Of a stretch of DNA of 64,000 nt, positions 1 through 27,235 are shown piece after piece. This DNA is from an uncultured delta proteobacterium (GTDB lineage: Bacteria > Desulfobacterota > Desulfobacteria > Desulfobacterales > JAFDCJ01), in assembly GCA_963769935.1 (NCBI GenBank), contig CAVYNY010000039.1, forward strand, positions 1-64,000, written 5' to 3'. How positions within the stretch are numbered: position 1 is the first letter of the stretch; the number at the start of each line of letters is the position of its first letter. Both the position numbers and the translations under genes were made by a program. Under the pieces are notes generated by a model, which was given only the letters and a program-made list of their open reading frames with translations, made no database searches and was not told where the DNA came from.

Positions 1-250
1 GTTATGCGGGCATGAACGTAAAAATTCATATTGATGATCCGGGCGCTTGATTATTCTAATGGCAAAAGATATTGCCAAACAAAGGTCACAAGTTAGGTGT
101 GCAGATCCGATGCTTTTGTCCTGGTACAATGGCAAAACCGGTGTATCGTACCCGAACCTCGAATGCGGACCCGGCGATAAACCGGCCTGGATAACATATG
201 CCGAATCAAGAGGCGACGACCTGACCTATTGATATCAATGACGGCCAATA
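1..250 (+). pseudogene. Degraded, 3'-truncated copy of an AF1514-family gene
   Basis: DPMLLSWYNGKTGVSYPNLECGPGDKPAWITYAESRG is near-identical to the product of 8622..8924. It has frameshifts, and similarity stops at ...GACGGCCAATA just before a repeat motif. Confidence 0.8.
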
Positions 251-259
251 AAAAAGACG

Positions 260-284
260 AGGGTCAAAGCTTGAATAGTGAATA
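260..284 (+). repeat. Empty copy of the GGGTCAAAGCTTGAATAGTGAATA host repeat (IS110 target motif)
   Basis: Matches the reconstructed IS110 empty site (5669-5683 joined to 7663-7681) and the copy at 9814-9847. Confidence 0.85.
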
Positions 285-4637: not shown

Positions 4638-5750
4638 ATGATTCCTCTCTTGAAAAATCGATCCATCGGAATATCAGATCTTTAAACGATGCTATTTATC
4701 GTTATCGGCAACTTTGTTAAAATTCTAAATTGCCACGCCCTTTTTGATGTCGAGATGGTTTAAACCCAAAAAGTAGTTGTAGCCGATGAATTACAGCGGA
4801 ACAGACTTTGATCGATATTTGATCGGGATTTTCCAGTTCGACGCCCAAGAATTGTTTTAAATGGGAAAGATTTTCGAGCGGCAAACGTTATGAGACAAAG
4901 TTTGACAATCATAAATTCAGCATCGGATCACATTGTGGAAATCCTGGTTAAATTAAGAACATACGTTCCACGGGGGAGTGATGGAAAGCCAAGTGATAAA
5001 AGCGCTATGGTATCTTTCGGAATGTTTGAAAAAATTTGGGCGATCCGCTCATATAGCAGACCGCCCGTTAGAGATTGGGAGAAATATTATGAGTCACATC
5101 CTGCTTTGGATGCTTAATAATCATTTTATCATAACCAATTTCCGTGTCAAATTTTCGTTCATCTAGGACACAGAACATGTTTAGAGAAAGTATTCAGTTT
5201 TCCATCGGTATTTCATACATATTTTTCAGTTTTAAAAATCATGGGCGTTAATATACTTCGAGACGCCAGGCTCCCTCTTAGACCGACTTAAGCTGGTCTC
5301 GGATATAGGTCCCGACCAAATTCAATCCAGGGTGGTTATCAACGCACCTATACCGACGATTTTGATTTTGGGAAAAAATCGGGATTTAGTTTTTCGAACT
5401 TGAACATATCAATAAATAAATCCTTCTCTATTTTTGCCTGAAAATGTCGCTTTAAATAAAGTTTCCCCAAAAAAAAACCGATATATATTGCATATTCAGT
5501 TTCATCTTGTCATCGGTATGGCAAACAGCTTTCAACAATAGGCGAATTATGGAATTATCAGAAGAAAACGGAAGTGGTTGCTGCTTGCGTGAGCAACAAA
5601 ATGGATAAAGCTGTAGAAGGCTATTACTTGCCCCCTGGTGAACTCTGGCGTCAGTCAATTGCGGTATCGAAAAAAGGGGGTCACCCATTAAAGGGCTTGT
5701 CAAGAGAAAAAACACCCCCTTGATCAAAAAAAATCAGTTTTTGATTGACA

Positions 5751-5861
5751 TTGATGGATTCCTAAAAAGCCCGTGCTCCTGGGTTAGCTTTTGAACGCAG
5801 GCGATGGTTTGTGCTGCTGATGGTCTTAAGATAAAGATCAGGCTTTTTAGGAATCCATCAA
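5751..5861. mobile_element. 111-bp MITE/REP-like element with perfect 21-bp terminal inverted repeats, nested in the IS110 end
   Basis: TTGATGGATTCCTAAAAAGCC (5751-5771) and GGCTTTTTAGGAATCCATCAA (5841-5861). Confidence 0.8.
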
Positions 5862-6051
5862 GTTTATAGCGCTCCTCAGCCCAGTGTCGCCTTTTCTCCT
5901 TTTCGCGCCCGCTATTTCTTTCTTATTGGCTTACGGTTAGTATTTTCTGATCCGCATCAGTCACCCATCAGGCTCAAGGCATTTGTGTTTTAAGCTCAAG
6001 GCTTGAAAACACCGCCCCTGGTCCGCTTGGGACCCCAGAAATTCTTCGGTT

Positions 6052-6408
6052 CCATACCGTGTTCAATTGGATGTGTTACAAATCTTGTGGTTATTAGCCA
6101 ACCCCTTATGGACTCACGGCATAGGCGAATCGAGATCTAAAGCGATCGCTGTCTGGTTATTATTGGCGAGTGCAGCAGCTGCCAATCACATCTAATGGTT
6201 TAGTGCCAACCCCTATACCGGCTCACTGCCGCACTCCAACTCTTATCGCATACGCACCTGCCTTTTTAGTCGCTCAAATATTGGTGTCTTTTAAGGCCGA
6301 TCGATGTATCATCGGCAATCAACTTTGATCGATTAGCTGGGTGCGGCAGCTGCCAATCAAAGCTGGTGGTTGAATACCAACCCCTTATCCGGTTGGCTGC
6401 CGCACCCA
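6052..6408 (-). ncRNA. Putative bridge/seek RNA region with three tandem target-binding loops
   Basis: Three stem-closed units share the layout [8-nt guide]-NNTGGT-[6 nt]-CCAACCCCT (at 6078-6106, 6186-6214 and 6357-6385). The unit nearest the transposase matches the insertion site. Confidence 0.78.
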
Positions 6409-6414
6409 AACCGA

Positions 6415-7431
6415 TTAACTAAATAGCTTGTCCTCATCGAAGGCAACCTGATCGCGCATGATGTAGTAAGAGGCCCGAGACAGCTTGTTGCTCAATGCCT
6501 TGATTGCTACCACATTCTTGCTTCTCGCCTTTTTGCTCTGATAAAAACTGTGTGCCTTGGGACAATATCTTTTGGCAAAGTTGGCCGCCTCCACATAGGC
6601 CCAGGCCAGGTACTTGTTGCCATTTTTCTTGTTGTTCTCACCTTTTTTCTTGCCATTGGATATTCTCTTACTTTGCACACATCGACAGTAGGAAGAATAG
6701 TCACCAACTGTAGCAAAACGTCCAATATCCCCGACTTCCAGCATGATGGTCAGCGCTAAAATCTTGCCTATCCCCGGAATCGTAAGCAACTTTGCAAATT
6801 CCTTGCGCAGCTTGGCCTGTGACATGACACGCTTTTCAATGCCTCTAATAATGTGCTTCAAAAATTCAATCGTCGCCCAACTGTTGGTGGCCATCAATAC
6901 TAAATCCGGACAATCGAACAGATCTGCAACATCTATGGCGCTCAGTTTCTTGATTTCATTGTTGGATATCTTAAAACCCAGATTTCTGCTGACCATACTC
7001 TGCAGACTCAAGATCTGCGCCGTTCGCTGTCGCACAAATAAAAGCCTGCGGCGTAACAAATCCCTTACCGCTCGATTCTCCTTGGGGTAGATGTATCCTT
7101 CAGCCAGCAGGTTCAAGCGGTACATGTGCGCCAACCAAAATGCATCCCAGGGATCATCGGTATGCTTCAGTCCCTCGTATTGTTTGATTGCCGAGGGATT
7201 AGCCAAATGAACCTCGTAGCCATTGTCCTGCAGGCCGTCGACCATCCAATACCAATTGAACGTGGATTCGATTACCACCGCCTTAAGGTTTTCCTTAAAC
7301 GGTTCCAGCGCCTTCAAGACTTCCTCCAGCCGGTTGCAATGCCGCTTGCCATAAAGCCTCTTATCGTTGCCGTCGATGATTCCAATAAAATTATTACTTG
7401 AATGCAAATCAATTCCAGCGTATGTTTCCAT
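6415..7431 (-). CDS. IS110-family transposase/recombinase
   Basis: N-terminal GIDLH...IEST...HTDDPWDA (DEDD RuvC-like) and C-terminal LLTIPGIG...GDIGRF...ISNG...GNKYL (Transposase_20-like). Confidence 0.96.
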   Translation of the reverse strand: METYAGIDLHSSNNFIGIIDGNDKRLYGKRHCNRLEEVLKALEPFKENLKAVVIESTFNWYWMVDGLQDNGYEVHLANPSAIKQYEGLKHTDDPWDAFWLAHMYRLNLLAEGYIYPKENRAVRDLLRRRLLFVRQRTAQILSLQSMVSRNLGFKISNNEIKKLSAIDVADLFDCPDLVLMATNSWATIEFLKHIIRGIEKRVMSQAKLRKEFAKLLTIPGIGKILALTIMLEVGDIGRFATVGDYSSYCRCVQSKRISNGKKKGENNKKNGNKYLAWAYVEAANFAKRYCPKAHSFYQSKKARSKNVVAIKALSNKLSRASYYIMRDQVAFDEDKLFS

Positions 7432-7432
7432 G

Positions 7433-7518
7433 GGACACCTCCTAAATCCTATAAAATTAATGTTAGACCCTTGTCTACTGGTTCCATAGCATATTTTGCT
7501 ATGGATAGGGAGGTGTCC
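7433..7518 (-). promoter_or_regulatory. Anti-Shine-Dalgarno hairpin over the transposase RBS
   Basis: GGACACCTCC (7433-7442, the SD on the minus strand) is a perfect 10-bp inverted repeat with GGAGGTGTCC (7509-7518). Confidence 0.65.
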
Positions 7519-7786
7519 TTTCTCAAGCTCGGCAGGCTGTAGTGAGATTTATCGCCAGCGGTCCGTAAGAAAATCTCACGCTTGACGAGCAATAACAGCT
7601 GAATGCAGGAAAAAAAGCAGTATCTATGATTTCCTGCCCTGTTGCTCTTTATATGTATATCAAAGCTTGAATAGTGAATAAGGACTCGCTTCCTTACCTG
7701 AATTTTATGAAATATTCGTTACGTTGTTGGCTGGCTTAACTTTCCAGCTTAGCCGCACTTATCCCTTAAATCGTCATCACGGAGAT

Positions 7787-8188
7787 TTATCGCAATTTAA
7801 ATCGGCCCTGCAGCAGAGGTCTGATACGAGAAATCTTTTCGAAATCTTTGTCACGATGTAAGAGGAAGGCACTATTTTCCATCGCAATCTGCGCGATACA
7901 GCAATCCACGGGGCTGTTGACCGTGACTCCCTTGCGCCTCAGTTCAAAATATATTCCGGCAGCCTCGGGCCATGTATCCTGTGATGCTTCCAGATAGTAT
8001 TGAGTCGAAAGGTATTTTTCCAGCAGCCCCCATTCTTTTTCATTAGCCGCGCCTTGCAGAAGCTCAAGCTGCTGAAATCGGCTGATTGCATAATTTTCCA
8101 CACCAATGGCTTTTTGAAAGGCTTTGACAAAATTGCCGGTTTTGTCTCTGAATATTTCTATCCAAACCGATGTGTCGACCAGGATCAT
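7787..8188 (-). CDS. vapC: VapC PIN-domain toxin
   Basis: MILVDTSVWI...ELLQG...VDCCIAQIA...LLHRDKDF PIN motifs. Confidence 0.93.
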   Translation of the reverse strand: MILVDTSVWIEIFRDKTGNFVKAFQKAIGVENYAISRFQQLELLQGAANEKEWGLLEKYLSTQYYLEASQDTWPEAAGIYFELRRKGVTVNSPVDCCIAQIAMENSAFLLHRDKDFEKISRIRPLLQGRFKLR

Positions 8189-8388
8189 CCCCTTAGCTTC
8201 CTCAGTTTTTTATGGTCGAAATTTTTATGAAACCCGACAGCACCTGCAAGTTCTGTGAGATCCTTGCGCTTTTTCAGCCGAATAAATTCAGTTAAAGCCT
8301 CATGAATGAGATCCTTCTTCGTTTTCGCGTTGCTGACCAAAAAGGCCTCATCCAGTAATTTGTCATCGATTACAATGTTGGTTCGCAT
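8185..8388 (-). CDS. vapB: VapB-family antitoxin
   Basis: MRTNIVIDDKLLDEAF...TKKDLIHEAL; 4-nt overlap with vapC. Confidence 0.92.
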   Translation of the reverse strand: MRTNIVIDDKLLDEAFLVSNAKTKKDLIHEALTEFIRLKKRKDLTELAGAVGFHKNFDHKKLRKLRG

Positions 8389-8621
8389 AATAGACTCCCT
8401 TAACGTACCTCATAGTTGCGTTTGGGTGTGTTTAACACTTATCATACACATTGCATACACAAAGTCAAGAAGAGGATAAAAGGGACAGGTACTTTATGCT
8501 CGACAAAAAAAATCCTATGCTATGAGGTAGTCATGGATTGGACTTCGACACTCCACTTCTCAATTTGAGAAATTTAGTTTTATTTTTGATAAGATATATC
8601 CACAAAAGGGGAATTCGAATC

Positions 8622-8924
8622 GTGACATTGATTAGGTCGAACGTAAAAGGTTATCCGGGAAAGTATATAAATCTTGACATTGATGATCCGGATCTTGACT
8701 TTTCAACGGCAAAGAATATTGCAAAACAAAAGGCAACAGAGATGGAAAATGATCCGATGATGCTATCCTGGTATAATGGCAAAACCGGTGAATCGTATCC
8801 GAACCTCGAATGCGGACCCGGTGATAAACCGGCCTGGATAGCATATGCCGAATCAAGAGGCGGCGACATCACCATTGATATCAATGACGGTCAATACGTT
8901 TTTATTTATCTCTCATTTGAATAA
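8622..8924 (+). CDS. AF1514-family protein
   Basis: DPMMLSWYNG...ECGPGDKPAWIAYAESRGGDITIDINDGQYVFIY; GTG start chosen by RBS. Confidence 0.75.
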   Translation: MTLIRSNVKGYPGKYINLDIDDPDLDFSTAKNIAKQKATEMENDPMMLSWYNGKTGESYPNLECGPGDKPAWIAYAESRGGDITIDINDGQYVFIYLSFE

Positions 8925-9696: not shown

Positions 9697-9813
9697 GAGG
9701 CTCTCACTGAATTTTTCAATTTGGCTGATAGTCTTGAAAGCAACTGCATTTCTCGTTTCTGATATTCCATCGCAGATGATGTGAATAGTGACGGAATCGC
9801 TCCAGAATTGCAA

Positions 9814-9847
9814 GAAAAAAGGGGCTCAAAGCTTGAATAGTCGATAA
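9814..9847 (+). repeat. Empty copy of the IS110 target repeat
   Basis: GAAAAAAGGGGCTCAAAGCTTGAATAGTCGATAA is 31/34 identical to the reconstructed IS110 empty site. Confidence 0.88.
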
Positions 9848-10094
9848 CGGCTTGTTTCCTTACGTGGATTTTCTTAGATGTTGAGGACGTTGTTGACTGG
9901 GTTGACTTAACGCCTTCACTTTGCTCAACATTTAAATCTGCGGCGACACGCCTTGATGATCGACAGATGCCCAACTCAGGCTATGATCAGGCAGCCTGAA
10001 GCGGCCTGATTTTTTCAATCTCCTGTTTGTTCTCTATCTTAGCCGTCCGGAGATCCACCGCGCGTTGTAAAAATTGGGGTGAAATATTGATTAT

Positions 10095-22852: not shown

Positions 22853-23590
22853 TCATAACCCAAGTCTGGCTATACCGTAATTATAAGCATCCTTTAAAGT
22901 AAAAATTTTCTCAATATCTTCATCAGGGATTTCCACATTAAATTCTTCTTCAAAAGACAAGACAAGCTCAACCAAGTCCAAGGAATCTGCACCAAGATCA
23001 TCAACAAAAGCAGCTTCGGGTACAACCTCTCCGGGATCAACAGAAAGCCTTTCGACAATTATTCTGGCCATTTTGTCCCACAACTTTTCTTTATCCAACG
23101 TCGTATCAACATCGTCTTTGCGTTTAGCCTCAGCCTCCCCTTGCTTGCGTTTGCGCACCGTTGCCAATGGTCGCCCCGCTTTTTCGATTTTCAGGGGTGA
23201 TGGACCGAGAATTGCTGAAAGGTCGGAAATAAGCTTTTCAAACTCAGGAGAAGATTGGGCGGGGTCCCAACTAACAAGGTCTGCGGCTTGTATGCCCCCA
23301 AAGCCCAGTGGGGGCCGTACCCTATCGATTAATATTGGGATCAATATATTCCGCTCAAGCCCCCTATCAGCTTCTTCCTGCACCCATCTTGAATCTACTG
23401 ATGTTTTAGACCATGCTACGATGACTGAGCGTGCGCTTTCGAGGGCATCTCCAATTACTTGACGCCAAGTTTTACCAGCCGGAATCGTCCGATCCCAAAA
23501 TACAGACCAACCATTCTTTTCAAGGGCTGTTACAATTGGCGCTATCTTTGATCTATCCTCTCTCGCATAGCTAATGAAAATGTCAGTCAT
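22853..23590 (-). CDS. TIR domain-acyl carrier protein fusion
   Basis: N-terminal [11 protein letters not shown]...VFWDR...SRWVQEEA (TIR); C-terminal [31 protein letters not shown] (ACP with the phosphopantetheine Ser). Confidence 0.9.
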
Positions 23591-24235: not shown

Positions 24236-24571
24236 CGCCTCCTTTTATTCCAACATTGAAAACCTGGTCCTCTGGGCCGGGATTCTTTACTTCTATTAGG
24301 ACGCAGATTCACAAAGGTTCTCAGCGATATACAAAGATTATATCGGCTATGGCTCGCTGGAACTTTAACCGGTAAGACCGTTCAACAAGACTGGCCGGCT
24401 GTTTCAAAGGACCTTGATAAGATGGTGCTGGAACCAGAAAAGTTCACCGGAGACAATTAATGAAATAAATGGTAAACGAGAGGCTGTCCAGAGGTTTGGA
24501 CCCACTTTTTCAACGGCAAAAAATTGAGGAATAATGAGGGTTATGAACCCTTCCAATCGAAAGATCCATAT

Positions 24572-27235
24572 ATGTATGACCTTATGATTTCCTACTCAAG
24601 AAATGATATCCCTTTTGTCCAAAAAATCGCCGACCTTCTTGCCGCCAAAGGGAAAGAAGTCTGGGTGGATCTAAAGGGTATATTTTATGGTGAAGAATGG
24701 TTGGAGAGAATATTTGCTGCCATAGAAGATTCGGATAATATGCTTTTTGTCCTGAGTCCTGATTCGATCAAATCTAAATATTGTATTTATGAAATCAAAC
24801 ATGCCCTAAACCACCACAAAAACATCTTGCCGATTTTATTCCGGGAAATAGCCCAAATCCAAACAATTCCTAAATATATCAGTAAACTGCAGTGGCTGAA
24901 TTACGAAAAAGATACCGATATGGATGCCGTGATCAGGGGCATTGTGGAGTTTGTCGAAGAAAATCCCAATCAGAAAAGATATCACAGCCAATTACTCAAC
25001 CGGGCCCGCCAGTGGAAAAAATTCGGACATGACAGCAGTTTGATTATGGGAAAAGACCTCGAAGAGGCAGCTGATTGGCTCAAAATATTTGAAAAAAAAT
25101 TTAAAATGAAATCCTCTTCATTGGAAAGGGAATTTATTCAAGCCAGCATTAACAAAGCCAGTCTGGTCTCGGAAATGCGGTCTGATTTGATATCCAACCA
25201 AATTCTCCGCGATCCAAACCTCGATCCGGAATTAGGAGTTGCCTTATCATTGGCGACAATTAAGGAAAACATGCTGACCGATAAATCAATTCTGGCATTA
25301 ACGCATAACCTGAAGTACGTGAAAACCATCGCTCTTTTTGACAAACATAATAAGGAAGCATTCGATAAGGAAGTTCACAGCGTTAGTATTACCTCGGATG
25401 AGCGGTTTGCCGCATCGGCCGGGGGTGACGGAACGGTACGAATTTGGAGCATAGCGACCCTTCAGGAAAAAACAGTTTACGATAGGCATGCACGCAACGC
25501 CGGCGGCGAAGCTTGGGCCGTGATGGCAGTAGATTGGTCGCCGGATAACCGTTTGATCGCATCCGGCGGCAAAGATGGTGTCCTGAGGATCTGGCATCCT
25601 TTTGAGATTGAGGATATCGCGGTGCTGCAGAAACACCAACATTGGATAAACGACCTGAAGTGGTCCCCGGACGGAAATTTCGTTGCTTCCTGTTCTCGTG
25701 ACGGCTCATTGTTGATTTGGGATACCCGGAACTGGAATCCGATAAGAAAGTTTCAATTCAGCCAATATTCATCGATTCGGGCGTTGTCCTGGAATCATGA
25801 CGCAAGCCGGATTGCAGCGGTTTCAGATTCGGGATTTATTCGGATACTCGACCCCCTGGTCGGAAAGATTTTGATGAAAAGACGCCTGTCAAAACAGGAC
25901 GCTGTATTATCTGTGGATTGGCATAGGATTACCGGCTTGATAATAACTTTTGCCAACATGATTGAAGATGAGGGAGCCGCAGTTCATATTTTGAATCCAG
26001 GCGATCTCACGGACGTTCATAAATACAACTTTCAAAAAGAATATATCCGTGATGTTAAATGGTCGAAAAATGGTGAACGGTTTGCTGCCGGGACAGACCA
26101 GGCAAGGGTATATATCTGCCAAGCCTTGAAGAAACCGGATGCGCAGATCCTGGTCGGCCATAAGAATGAAATTTCCAGTATGGCCTGGCTCGAGAACGAT
26201 ACGAAACTTGTCACATCCTCGGAAGATGCAACTGTTCGCATTTGGACCCTGGATGAAGAGCAAAAATCGCAAGTTATCGCAAAGCAATCAACGATTGTTG
26301 CCGAAGTGGGATGGACATCTGACGGCAATAAATTGATAATAGGCGGTTTTGATGGCCGGATTGATGTGCTTGACGCCCAAGATTTTAAAAAATTGCTGAC
26401 AATGCGACCTTATCCCAGGAATCATATACATCACTGGACTTTATCGCCGGACGGCTCGAAAATACTGATCGGCGCTGATTGCCGAATCGCCCGTCTGTGG
26501 GACGTCACCTCCGGCACTCAACTGCATGAGTTTAAAACTTTCAAAAATTGGACCAATGGCGTAGCCTGGTGCCCGAGAAACCAGTATATCGCCATTGGAG
26601 ATTGTGATATTCGCATCTACGAGACCCAGGATTTTCAACAGGTTAAAATTTTAAAAGGTCATGAAGAAGCTTTGGAAATAGTTGACTGGTCACCCAACGG
26701 CAGGTTTTTGGCCAGCACGGGTCTTGATATGCTGCTTATCATTTGGGATATGGATAGGATGGAAATGCCCTGGAAAATAAAGTGTCATGATGACAAGGTT
26801 TTTGCGTTGGCCTGGTCACCGGATAGTAAATATGTCGTTACAGGAGGGAAGGATAATACCGCTAAGGTCTGGCAAATTATGGATGAGAGGCCGGTCAGCA
26901 TTTTCTTAGACCATGATGCCCCCGTTTATTGCGCCAAGTGGGCTCCCAATGGAAGGTTGGTCGCAACGGGTTCGGGTGATCGTACTATTCGAATCTGGAA
27001 CCCTGCCACGGGGGAGGGTTTAATTACACTTACCGTACAAGAAGGACCGGCACACAGCATTTGTTGGGATCAAACCGGCAGTAAACTTATAAGCGGCAGT
27101 GAGGAAGGCAGTGTCAGACTCTGGGAATTAGTTGTTGAAAAAGAAAAATTGGTAGCTATTGCTAAAAGCAGAATAGTTAAGTCTTTAACTGAGAAGGAAA
27201 GATCAGAATTTGGGTTATTAAAAGAGCTTTACTAA
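24572..27235 (+). CDS. TIR domain + WD40 beta-propeller protein
   Basis: YDLMISYSR...VWVD...SKYCIYEI (TIR), a helical linker, then about 14 WD repeats (WSPDG...ASGG.DG..RIW). Confidence 0.92.
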   Translation: MYDLMISYSRNDIPFVQKIADLLAAKGKEVWVDLKGIFYGEEWLERIFAAIEDSDNMLFVLSPDSIKSKYCIYEIKHALNHHKNILPILFREIAQIQTIPKYISKLQWLNYEKDTDMDAVIRGIVEFVEENPNQKRYHSQLLNRARQWKKFGHDSSLIMGKDLEEAADWLKIFEKKFKMKSSSLEREFIQASINKASLVSEMRSDLISNQILRDPNLDPELGVALSLATIKENMLTDKSILALTHNLKYVKTIALFDKHNKEAFDKEVHSVSITSDERFAASAGGDGTVRIWSIATLQEKTVYDRHARNAGGEAWAVMAVDWSPDNRLIASGGKDGVLRIWHPFEIEDIAVLQKHQHWINDLKWSPDGNFVASCSRDGSLLIWDTRNWNPIRKFQFSQYSSIRALSWNHDASRIAAVSDSGFIRILDPLVGKILMKRRLSKQDAVLSVDWHRITGLIITFANMIEDEGAAVHILNPGDLTDVHKYNFQKEYIRDVKWSKNGERFAAGTDQARVYICQALKKPDAQILVGHKNEISSMAWLENDTKLVTSSEDATVRIWTLDEEQKSQVIAKQSTIVAEVGWTSDGNKLIIGGFDGRIDVLDAQDFKKLLTMRPYPRNHIHHWTLSPDGSKILIGADCRIARLWDVTSGTQLHEFKTFKNWTNGVAWCPRNQYIAIGDCDIRIYETQDFQQVKILKGHEEALEIVDWSPNGRFLASTGLDMLLIIWDMDRMEMPWKIKCHDDKVFALAWSPDSKYVVTGGKDNTAKVWQIMDERPVSIFLDHDAPVYCAKWAPNGRLVATGSGDRTIRIWNPATGEGLITLTVQEGPAHSICWDQTGSKLISGSEEGSVRLWELVVEKEKLVAIAKSRIVKSLTEKERSEFGLLKELY

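Follow-up and report, generated by a model that had tools for sequence, protein, structure and literature searches.

The stretch of DNA analyzed here (the window) comprises the first 64,000 nucleotides of contig CAVYNY010000039.1 in the assembly of an uncultured delta proteobacterium of the Desulfobacterales (GCA_963769935.1), and it harbors an insertion sequence of the IS110 family (Table 1). In the orientation of the transposase gene, the element would be read as a left end with a subterminal repeat, a 5' leader, the transposase gene, an RNA-coding region of 731 nt and a right end. It is very probably an intact element with the architecture of the IS1111 group, whose own bridge or seek RNA specifies the site that it occupies. 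An earlier note, made from the letters of the sequence alone, had labeled it IS110, which is right at the level of the family, and had described it as a site-specific insertion into a dispersed host repeat. For comparison, 80 public loci encoding relatives (47-78% identity) were used, mostly from Desulfobacterales and other sediment metagenome-assembled genomes; they are designated L001 onward.

Table 1. Coordinates of the element, its parts and the host repeat in the window.
Feature	Position	Strand	Remarks
Insertion sequence, IS110 family	5684..7662	-	1,979 bp, one core copy (7660-7662) counted
Left flank GAAAAAAGGGGGTCA	5669..5683	+	read directly; core copy TCA at 5681-5683
Right flank AAGCTTGAATAGTGAATAA	7663..7681	+	read directly
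Right end	5684..5703	-	terminus ...CCTTTAATGGG; ends at 5684
Hairpin of 111 nt	5751..5861		21-bp perfect arms; in the tail of the 3' non-coding region
Donor-binding domain	5949..6131	-	9-bp closing stem; GATTCGC (6125-6131) with GCGGATC (5949-5955)
Third, target-loop-like unit	6054..6132	-	in the donor domain; covariance model 14.7 bits, E 0.1 (6056-6132)
Target-binding loop 2	6155..6242	-	covariance model 76.1 bits, E 1.5e-17
Target-binding loop 1	6326..6413	-	covariance model 81.2 bits, E 6.8e-19
Transposase gene, 338 aa	6415..7431	-	sole long open reading frame inside the element
Left end and 5' non-coding region, 231 nt	7432..7662	-	terminus TGATATACAT
Anti-Shine-Dalgarno segment GGACACCTCC	7509..7518	-	pairs with ribosome-binding site GGAGGTGTCC (7433-7442), ~70 nt apart
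Optional hairpin module, ~62 nt	7528..7589	-	CTCGTCA...GTGAGATTT...AAATCTCAC...TGCCGAG; in the 5' leader
Unoccupied host repeat	250..284	+	12-nt guide-read site (260-271) with 1 mismatch, ACCCT
Unoccupied host repeat, longer version	9812..9938	+	12-nt guide-read site (9822-9833) with 1 mismatch, AGCCC

Boundaries of the Element and Its Host Repeat

The two copies of TCA at the junctions are spaced by 1,979 bp, which is the length that had been proposed for the element, and nothing longer is common to the two junctions, in agreement with the claim that no further target duplication is present. In transposase orientation, the left flank of the window becomes the right half of the target, TGA-CCCCCTTTTTTC, and the right flank becomes its left half, ...TTATTCACTATTCAAGCTT. 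When rejoined, the flanks give a 34-mer that matches positions 9814-9847 at 31 of 34 (three differing positions, counted by eye), and this sequence is found unoccupied at 250-284 and 9812-9847.

The earlier note had asked for the ends of other copies to be compared, and both termini proved to be conserved among the relatives, with flanks that diverge right outside them. The left terminus TGATAATCATATAA(AGGGC) is present in 58 of the 80 loci; if only the 65 with 250 nt or more of upstream sequence are counted, it is present in 54. In the window, it reads TGATATACATATAAAGAGC and starts at 7662. At the right end, the motif CTTGAC...AATGGG was found in 51 of the 74 rows examined, and the window has a perfect TTGACA (5698-5703), 14 nt from the tip, which is conserved as CTTGAC in relatives. 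A subterminal inverted repeat of the right end (GCCCTTTAAT, 5687-5696) pairs imperfectly with that of the left end (ATATAAAGAGC, 7644-7654), and these repeats covary between the ends, as shown by AGAGGC in L012, AAAGGCC in L024 and AAAAGGC in L045 and L078. The 44 elements with both ends found measure 1,503-1,997 bp. The window copy is the second longest of them, because a second unit of 171 nt and the 111-nt hairpin have been added to its downstream region, which typically has 400-470 nt in the family. The triplets at the right-end junction (n=51) are TGA in 28 cases, CGA in 7, TGT in 6, TGC in 5 and others in 5 (two TGG, one GGA, one AAT and one empty at a contig end). Thus, the universally shared core is probably TG, or CA on the plus strand, the third base A coinciding in the window copy.

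As TGACCCC or CGACCCC follows ...AATGGG in most of 44 rows, one might place the true right end further out and consider TGACCCC as part of the element. We regard this as most unlikely, since the unoccupied repeats join TGA(C/G)CCC directly to AAGCTT with no element between them. In addition, L024 and L025, which represent one element at two sites, diverge just outside their termini, on this side right after AATGGG; other clades differ at these positions and their guides follow; and the GGGGU of the target loop described below is complementary to the ACCCC found there.

The right flanks of L003, L005, L011, L047, L052 and L061 contain tandem repeats of either the tip of the end or the target half. 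In L003, 54 nt separate two right termini, and in L061 it is TGACCCCACTGACCTTG that is repeated. Earlier insertions may have left such repeats behind, or they may represent targets arranged in tandem. L053/L054 (Desulfosarcina widdelii, NZ_AP021875.1) has a second, partial copy of the element about 790 nt past the first, in which the target loop and the right end are preserved along with the 3' part of the transposase gene; the two right ends are flanked by different sequences.

A 21-mer made of the core and the right flank matches the window, with up to three mismatches, at 264 (0 mismatches), 7660 (0) and 9826 (2), always on the plus strand, and it has no match in 100 dinucleotide shuffles. 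The similarity between 7660-7772 and 9826-9938 (71% over 113 nt) reaches further than had been seen before, and the left halves of the three copies have only about 15 nt in common. The description of the repeat as dispersed holds insofar as there are three copies, but all of them are confined to the first 10 kb, where they point in one direction between small genes that point in both, and none is found in the other 54 kb. The two copies that had been put forward as unoccupied targets both keep the match to the left guide, and each has one deviation in the right flank. The flanks of L012, L022 and L024 resemble the left target half of the window past the five guide-read bases (ATTCACTAWTCAAGSTT), which suggests that the host repeat belongs to a repeat family common to related genomes.

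Whether this repeat resembles repetitive extragenic palindromic (REP) or attC sequences, as had also been proposed, was addressed by folding its three copies as single-stranded DNA. The use of such sites by IS110 and IS1111 elements is known (references in PMC11208160). Some relatives are inserted in short palindromes of the form GGGTCAA-N8-9-TTGACCC, and the genes of the neighborhood are small and cassette-like, all of which would fit a structured target recognized through a hairpin. However, an imperfect palindrome able to fold in this manner was not found in the three copies, whose z-scores range from -0.56 to +0.73 (individual values -0.37, +0.20, +0.73 and -0.56); the host repeat folds no better than shuffled sequence and is therefore not REP- or attC-like. 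Moreover, genes lie on both strands, no integron integrase was found among the 34 open reading frames scanned in the window, which begins inside the variable region, and the choice of the site is explained by the 12-nt guide match. Recognition of a structured target is thus very unlikely. The boundaries and the target as such amount to routine annotation of a new family member.

Transposase and Assignment to the IS1111 Group

The transposase matches the Pfam families DEDD_Tnp_IS110 (PF01548; residues 5-147, E 5.9e-14) and Transposase_20 (PF02371; residues 214-298, E 2.1e-14), and it scores 183 bits, for a cut-off of 140, with the NCBIfam model NF033542, 'IS110 family RNA-guided transposase'. 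In a large protein collection, at least 120 homologues are 75-90% identical to it, nearly all of them of 338 aa, and many of those listed lie on contigs of about 2 kb, as expected of a repeated element that breaks assemblies. The match to the IS621 and ISCro4 transposases of solved structure is weak (E 2e-7 for IS621). In the IS621 alignment, ...SKRISNGKKKG of the query lies opposite ...RRYESGSSVRG, serine aligned with serine; relative to the expected C-terminal G--P----SG motif, the query has SNG instead of SG and Q instead of P. Among 15 relatives, S258 is nearly invariant and G260 invariant, and the serine of this region may be the catalytic serine.

The combination of an N-terminal DEDD/RuvC-like domain (PF01548) with a C-terminal PF02371 domain, and site-specific insertion with no more than a short core (TCA here, TG in relatives), place the element in the IS110 family. 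Several further properties are those of the IS1111 group. Downstream of the transposase gene, the non-coding region, estimated at about 730 bp in the earlier note, measures 731 nt (5684-6414) vs. 231 nt upstream (7432-7662), and it has about 400-790 nt in relatives. The subterminal inverted repeats, which range from 7 to 17 bp in the class, are present though imperfect in the window copy, and the transposase, with 338 aa, lies inside the range of 330-350 aa given for IS1111 transposases (Siddiquee et al., 2024, PMC11187229). On the minus strand, the segment AAGGGGU (6380-6388), which matches the top strand, lies 5' of the bottom-strand match AGCUUUGA (6357-6364), and this is the order described for IS1111-type seekRNAs (PMC11187229). 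In the IS1111 group, the RNA lies downstream of the gene (Siddiquee et al., 2024, PMC11187229; Durrant et al., 2024, PMC11208160). By these features, we count the element as a new member of the IS1111 group, whose insertion sequences are RNA-guided.

Target Loop 1 and Its Match to the Flanks

Target-binding loop 1 begins directly after the stop codon of the transposase gene and is closed by a stem of 10-12 bp, inside which the layout is ...GAACC-NN-[N4 GGGGU]-UGG-loop-CCA-NN-[N5-UG]A-UUGG. For 55 aligned units, RNAalifold gave 12 pairs, and double compensatory changes are seen at 9. A covariance model of the target loop, built from first units, matches 76 of the 80 loci at E<=0.001, 54 of the scored loci being its training set. 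In the window, the left guide AGCUU-UGA (6357-6364) is identical to the five bases left of the element followed by the core, and the right guide AUAAGGGGU (6380-6388) contains the segment AAGGGGU, complementary to the ACCCC of the right target half (5669-5683). With these exact matches to both flanks at the junction, the element's own guides independently confirm its boundaries to the base and bear out the site-specific insertion.

The correspondence extends to the relatives. Among 53 independent insertions, the left guide matches the left flank at five of five positions in 40 cases if G:U pairs are allowed, and in 29 with Watson-Crick pairs only. When the element-flank pairings were permuted 2,000 times, 8.2 matched on average and 16 at most, a control that leaves relatedness among elements in place. 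The mismatches mostly consist of a U opposite C-top/G-bottom; a U where the flank has C is what would be expected if the RNA pairs with the bottom DNA strand. L037 provides a further case of covariation, as CG is the core of its flank, its end and its guide alike. The right guide segment is nearly constant across the relatives, because most of them have ACCCC on the right. Clades with other right flanks have matching guide segments, namely GTACTGGC in L039, ATAGGTGC in L066, GGGGAGG in L056, ATTCCGGAC in L034 and GTCCTATT in L067, L070 and L071, and matching segments are also found in L040 and L032. These data suggest a target rule of five free bases, followed by TG and then by ACCCC.

Another segment, UAUUCAA, the first after GGUUGG, is identical to flank positions -14 to -8 in the window. 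By eye, it does not track the flanks in the relatives, and it was treated as a hairpin loop with a chance match.

Donor-Binding Domain

The closing stem of the donor-binding domain shows many compensatory variants, for instance in L013, L049, L052, L063 and L072. Its left-donor guide, AUGGG-UGA (5961-5968), is identical to the tip of the right end plus the core, and it is part of a block, GCCUUGAUCCYG-AUGGG-UGA-CUGGUGCGGAUCAG, that is conserved in about 50 loci. About 75 nt upstream of this block, after GGAACC-GA, lies the right-donor guide AGAAUUUCU (6037-6045), nine bases that are complementary to the start of the left end. Both guides covary with the ends. In L018, the end is AATGGA and the internal copy is AUGGAUGA, as expected of a left-donor guide. 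For the right-donor guide, changes that match those of left-end positions 6-7 are found in L012, L022, L026, L027 and L050; the window matches at one of its two deviant positions, and L008, L029 and L021 are without a match. By our own count, an A occupies position 4 of this guide in 4 of the 6 elements whose left-end position 6 is a T, as compared with 0 of the 30 others, with the caveat that two of the four, L012 and L022, may share ancestry. Position 3 is a G, by eye, in all three elements with a C at left-end position 7. On account of its donor guides and closing stem, the RNA would follow the two-loop logic of bridge RNA in an IS1111 layout.

Proposed Mode of Insertion

The bridge or seek RNA would be produced in the transposase sense. 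On the 5' side of loop 1, AAGGGGU would pair in the right target half with the top strand (ACCCC...), and on its 3' side, AGCUU-UG(A) would pair in the left target half and the core with the bottom strand; together, the two guides would specify ~AGCTT-TG-ACCCC, that is exactly the occupied site. The donor guides correspond to the right-end tip with the core and to the left-end start, and hence to a predicted circle junction, ...TATGTATA-TCA-CCCATTAAAG.... By analogy with ISEc11 and IS621, a circular form would be inserted by recombination at the shared core without further duplication. Expression may be driven by a junction promoter composed of TTGACA in the right end, which we infer to be the -35 box, and of an A/T-rich hexamer in the left end.

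The anatomy of the element, the conservation of its ends, the covarying matches of the guides to the flanks and to the ends and the covariation of the stems are shown by the sequences, whereas the production of the RNA, the formation of a circle and the junction promoter are predictions. Several observations weigh against this account. A perfect match of the left guide is missing in 13 of the 53 insertions, and shared ancestry may contribute to the others, as the permutation control does not remove it. In the window, the match of the right guide is imperfect, with ACCCCCTTT found for a predicted ACCCCTTAT (7 of 9 positions). At right-flank positions 6-9, no significant covariation with the guide was detected among 31 elements (1.81 vs. 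1.69), as 497 of 2,000 permutations reached the observed value. The junction promoter is weak, since by eye the second hexamer of TTGACA-N17-TATACA fits at four of six positions, and no internal promoter was found by a simple scan of the minus strand of the element. No Rfam family matches the element: the window gave no hit at the gathering thresholds, and those over the element at E<=10 were at chance level only. Lastly, the left-end subterminal repeat of the window reads AAAGAGC rather than the AAAGGGC of the family, and left-end position 7 is unpaired with the donor guide. Because its left end departs from the family in this manner, the window copy may be somewhat impaired.

Tandem Target Loops

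The RNA-coding region of the window contains a second target-binding loop at a spacing of 171 nt from the first, with AGAUG-UGA (6186-6193) as its left guide and UAUAGGGGU (6209-6217) as its right guide. Two strong units in tandem are also found in L007, L008, L009 and L061, spaced by 170-175 nt, and in L012 and L022, spaced by 108-114 nt, whereas L059 has a weak unit and a strong one. Within the clade of the window, identities are 0.73-0.92 among first loops, 0.67-0.93 among second loops and 0.65-0.80 between first and second loops, the latter being lower overall with overlapping ranges. Since like units are more alike across elements, the duplication predates the divergence of these elements, and both copies have been kept.

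That both loops are working guides has, in our estimate, a little less than an even chance. The element would then be bispecific, for AGCTT-TG-ACCCC and AGATG-TG-ACCCC, and the duplication would provide a route to retargeting. Loop 2 scores nearly as high as loop 1 (76.1 vs. 81.2 bits), and the duplication is an old one, common to L007, L008, L009 and L061 at similar spacing. Its stems carry compensatory changes, GGTTGC/GCAACC in L007 and GGGCGT/ACGCCC in L009, and in both units the guide varies from one to another of the five two-loop elements of the clade. Furthermore, the flank matches unit 1 in the window (5/5), L012 and L022, and it matches unit 2 in L007 (5/5), L008 (5/5, with one wobble) and L059 (5/5), L007 and L008 belonging to the clade of the window. 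These matches suggest that either loop position can guide, and loop 2 probably gives, or gave, the element a second class of targets. For ISEc11, retargeting was reported to require changes to the seekRNA and also to the sequences flanking the donor copy (PMC11187229), and a second loop would ease a constraint of this type.

On the other hand, loop 2 might be a leftover of the tandem duplication without a role, with loop 1 as the sole guide, and we consider this to be almost as likely. The flanks of the window fit loop 1 only, at 5/5 positions vs. 3/5 for loop 2, and most relatives have a single loop; two loops are present in only six or seven of the 80, and therefore one suffices. No single element was seen at both classes of sites among the loci of the 80 relatives and the window, and the 64-kb window has no loop 2 site beyond chance, with 2 matches at 2 mismatches for 3.9 expected. 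The retention of both copies could be structural rather than related to guiding, and a third unit (see below) shows that loop copies can persist without tracking targets. What a mere leftover accounts for less well is that both copies have been kept at orthologous positions with intact and compensated stems, and that the guides of loop 2 have diverged, with a match of this loop to the flank in L007, L008 and L059.

The third unit, nested in the donor-binding domain, has a covarying stem (6115-6122 with 6054-6061) and a 'guide', AAGAUUUGU (6078-6086), that is constant in almost all relatives; among first units, AGAUU is also the guide found most often. It matches neither the flanks nor the ends of the window element, and sites for its 'guide' in the window do not exceed chance. 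It has the look of an ancestral target loop kept as a frozen copy. A role as a donor loop was considered and rejected by reasoning, as its segments match neither end, nor either strand of the junction, nor the subterminal repeats. Taken together, the three units might form a natural array, with two independently evolving, interchangeable guides and a third, frozen copy on one RNA, which would serve two classes of targets and enable the element to change its target without losing the exit from its present site; we hold this to be possible, but short of likely.

RNA-guided site choice by IS110 and IS1111 elements has been known since 2024, and in a review of September 2026, these systems are still said to use one programmable RNA (PMC13604230). 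A literal-phrase search of the literature found no tandem target loops, which is weak evidence of absence; the supplementary figures of PMC11208160 and PMC11187229, with their many predicted RNA structures, may bear on the question. Besides the confirmed junctions and the readable target rule, the window element offers a modest new variant, in which target loops with different guides stand in tandem and have been kept across a clade. If both loops work, nature has set a precedent for bridge RNAs that are multiplexed or switchable, and this would suggest an escape from the requirement, reported for ISEc11, for a joint change of guide and donor flanks.

Comparison with Known Systems

ISEc11, ISPa11 and ISKpn4 are IS1111 family elements with a seekRNA (Siddiquee et al., 2024, PMC11187229). 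The window element is likened to them by its features: a transposase of about 339 aa with DEDD and PF02371 domains, a long downstream non-coding region, inverted repeats in subterminal position, a small RNA, closed by a stem, in which the match to the top strand of the target is in the 5' segment and that to the bottom strand in the 3' segment, a fixed insertion point, and natural retargeting by replacement of the guide. It differs from them in its target and in the extent of its non-coding region, 731 nt as compared with seekRNAs of 82-172 nt, the 82-nt RNA of ISEc11 having sufficed in the authors' assay (PMC11187229). It also differs in having two full target loops, a nested third unit and a covarying donor domain.

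IS621 represents the IS110 group, with a bridge RNA (Durrant et al., 2024, PMC11208160; structures 8WT6 and others). Its transposase is of the same fold family (E 2e-7), and a single RNA likewise has target- and donor-binding loops that each read both strands around a 2-nt core. In contrast, the RNA of IS621 lies upstream of the gene, in the left end, the order of the guides within the loop is reversed, and there is one target loop. The core of IS621 is presumably CT, vs. TG in the window element. The IS1111-attC group, IS4321 and IS5075 target integron attC sites or the terminal repeats of transposons. The window element is similar to them in that it uses one orientation and one position of a repeated sequence, but its repeat is neither demonstrably attC nor palindromic. 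Finally, ISPpu9 with Ssr9 is another IS110 family system that has an RNA gene downstream of the transposase and a modular composition (PMC12288879). Ssr9 was reported to be dispensable for transposition and to move by itself (PMC12288879), whereas the window element gives no sign of an independently moving RNA gene.

Additional Hairpins, Leader and Neighboring Genes

The arm sequence of the 111-nt hairpin is absent from all 80 related loci, and a BLAST comparison with L008 shows about 107 extra nt in the window at its position. No target duplication is evident around it, and either a terminator or a very small mobile element nested at this place could account for it. The simple scan of the minus strand of the element found no internal terminator.

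In the 5' leader, the optional hairpin module is shared with about a dozen relatives, including L001, L002, L004, L007, L008, L010, L011, L014, L015, L016 and L050, and is missing from those with a short leader; the covariance model of the target loop does not match it. The pairing between the ribosome-binding site and the anti-Shine-Dalgarno segment is kept in relatives with changes on both sides (GCACCTCC/GGAGGTGC), and it looks like a device for translational masking of the transposase start.

The genes of the neighborhood include cpYpsA, PilZ, an AAA_22 ATPase, VapBC, two DUF5619 paralogues and DUF2293. The DUF5619 paralogues (1-249 and 8538-8924) are 90% identical over 123 nt, and a copy of the host repeat directly follows the first. 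A toxin-antitoxin pair, VapC (PIN) and VapB (7787-8388, minus strand), adjoins the insertion site. Further away, a protein with TIR and phosphopantetheine-binding domains (22853-23590, minus strand) adjoins a WD40-repeat protein of 903 aa (24524-27235), which is possibly a defense-type pairing.

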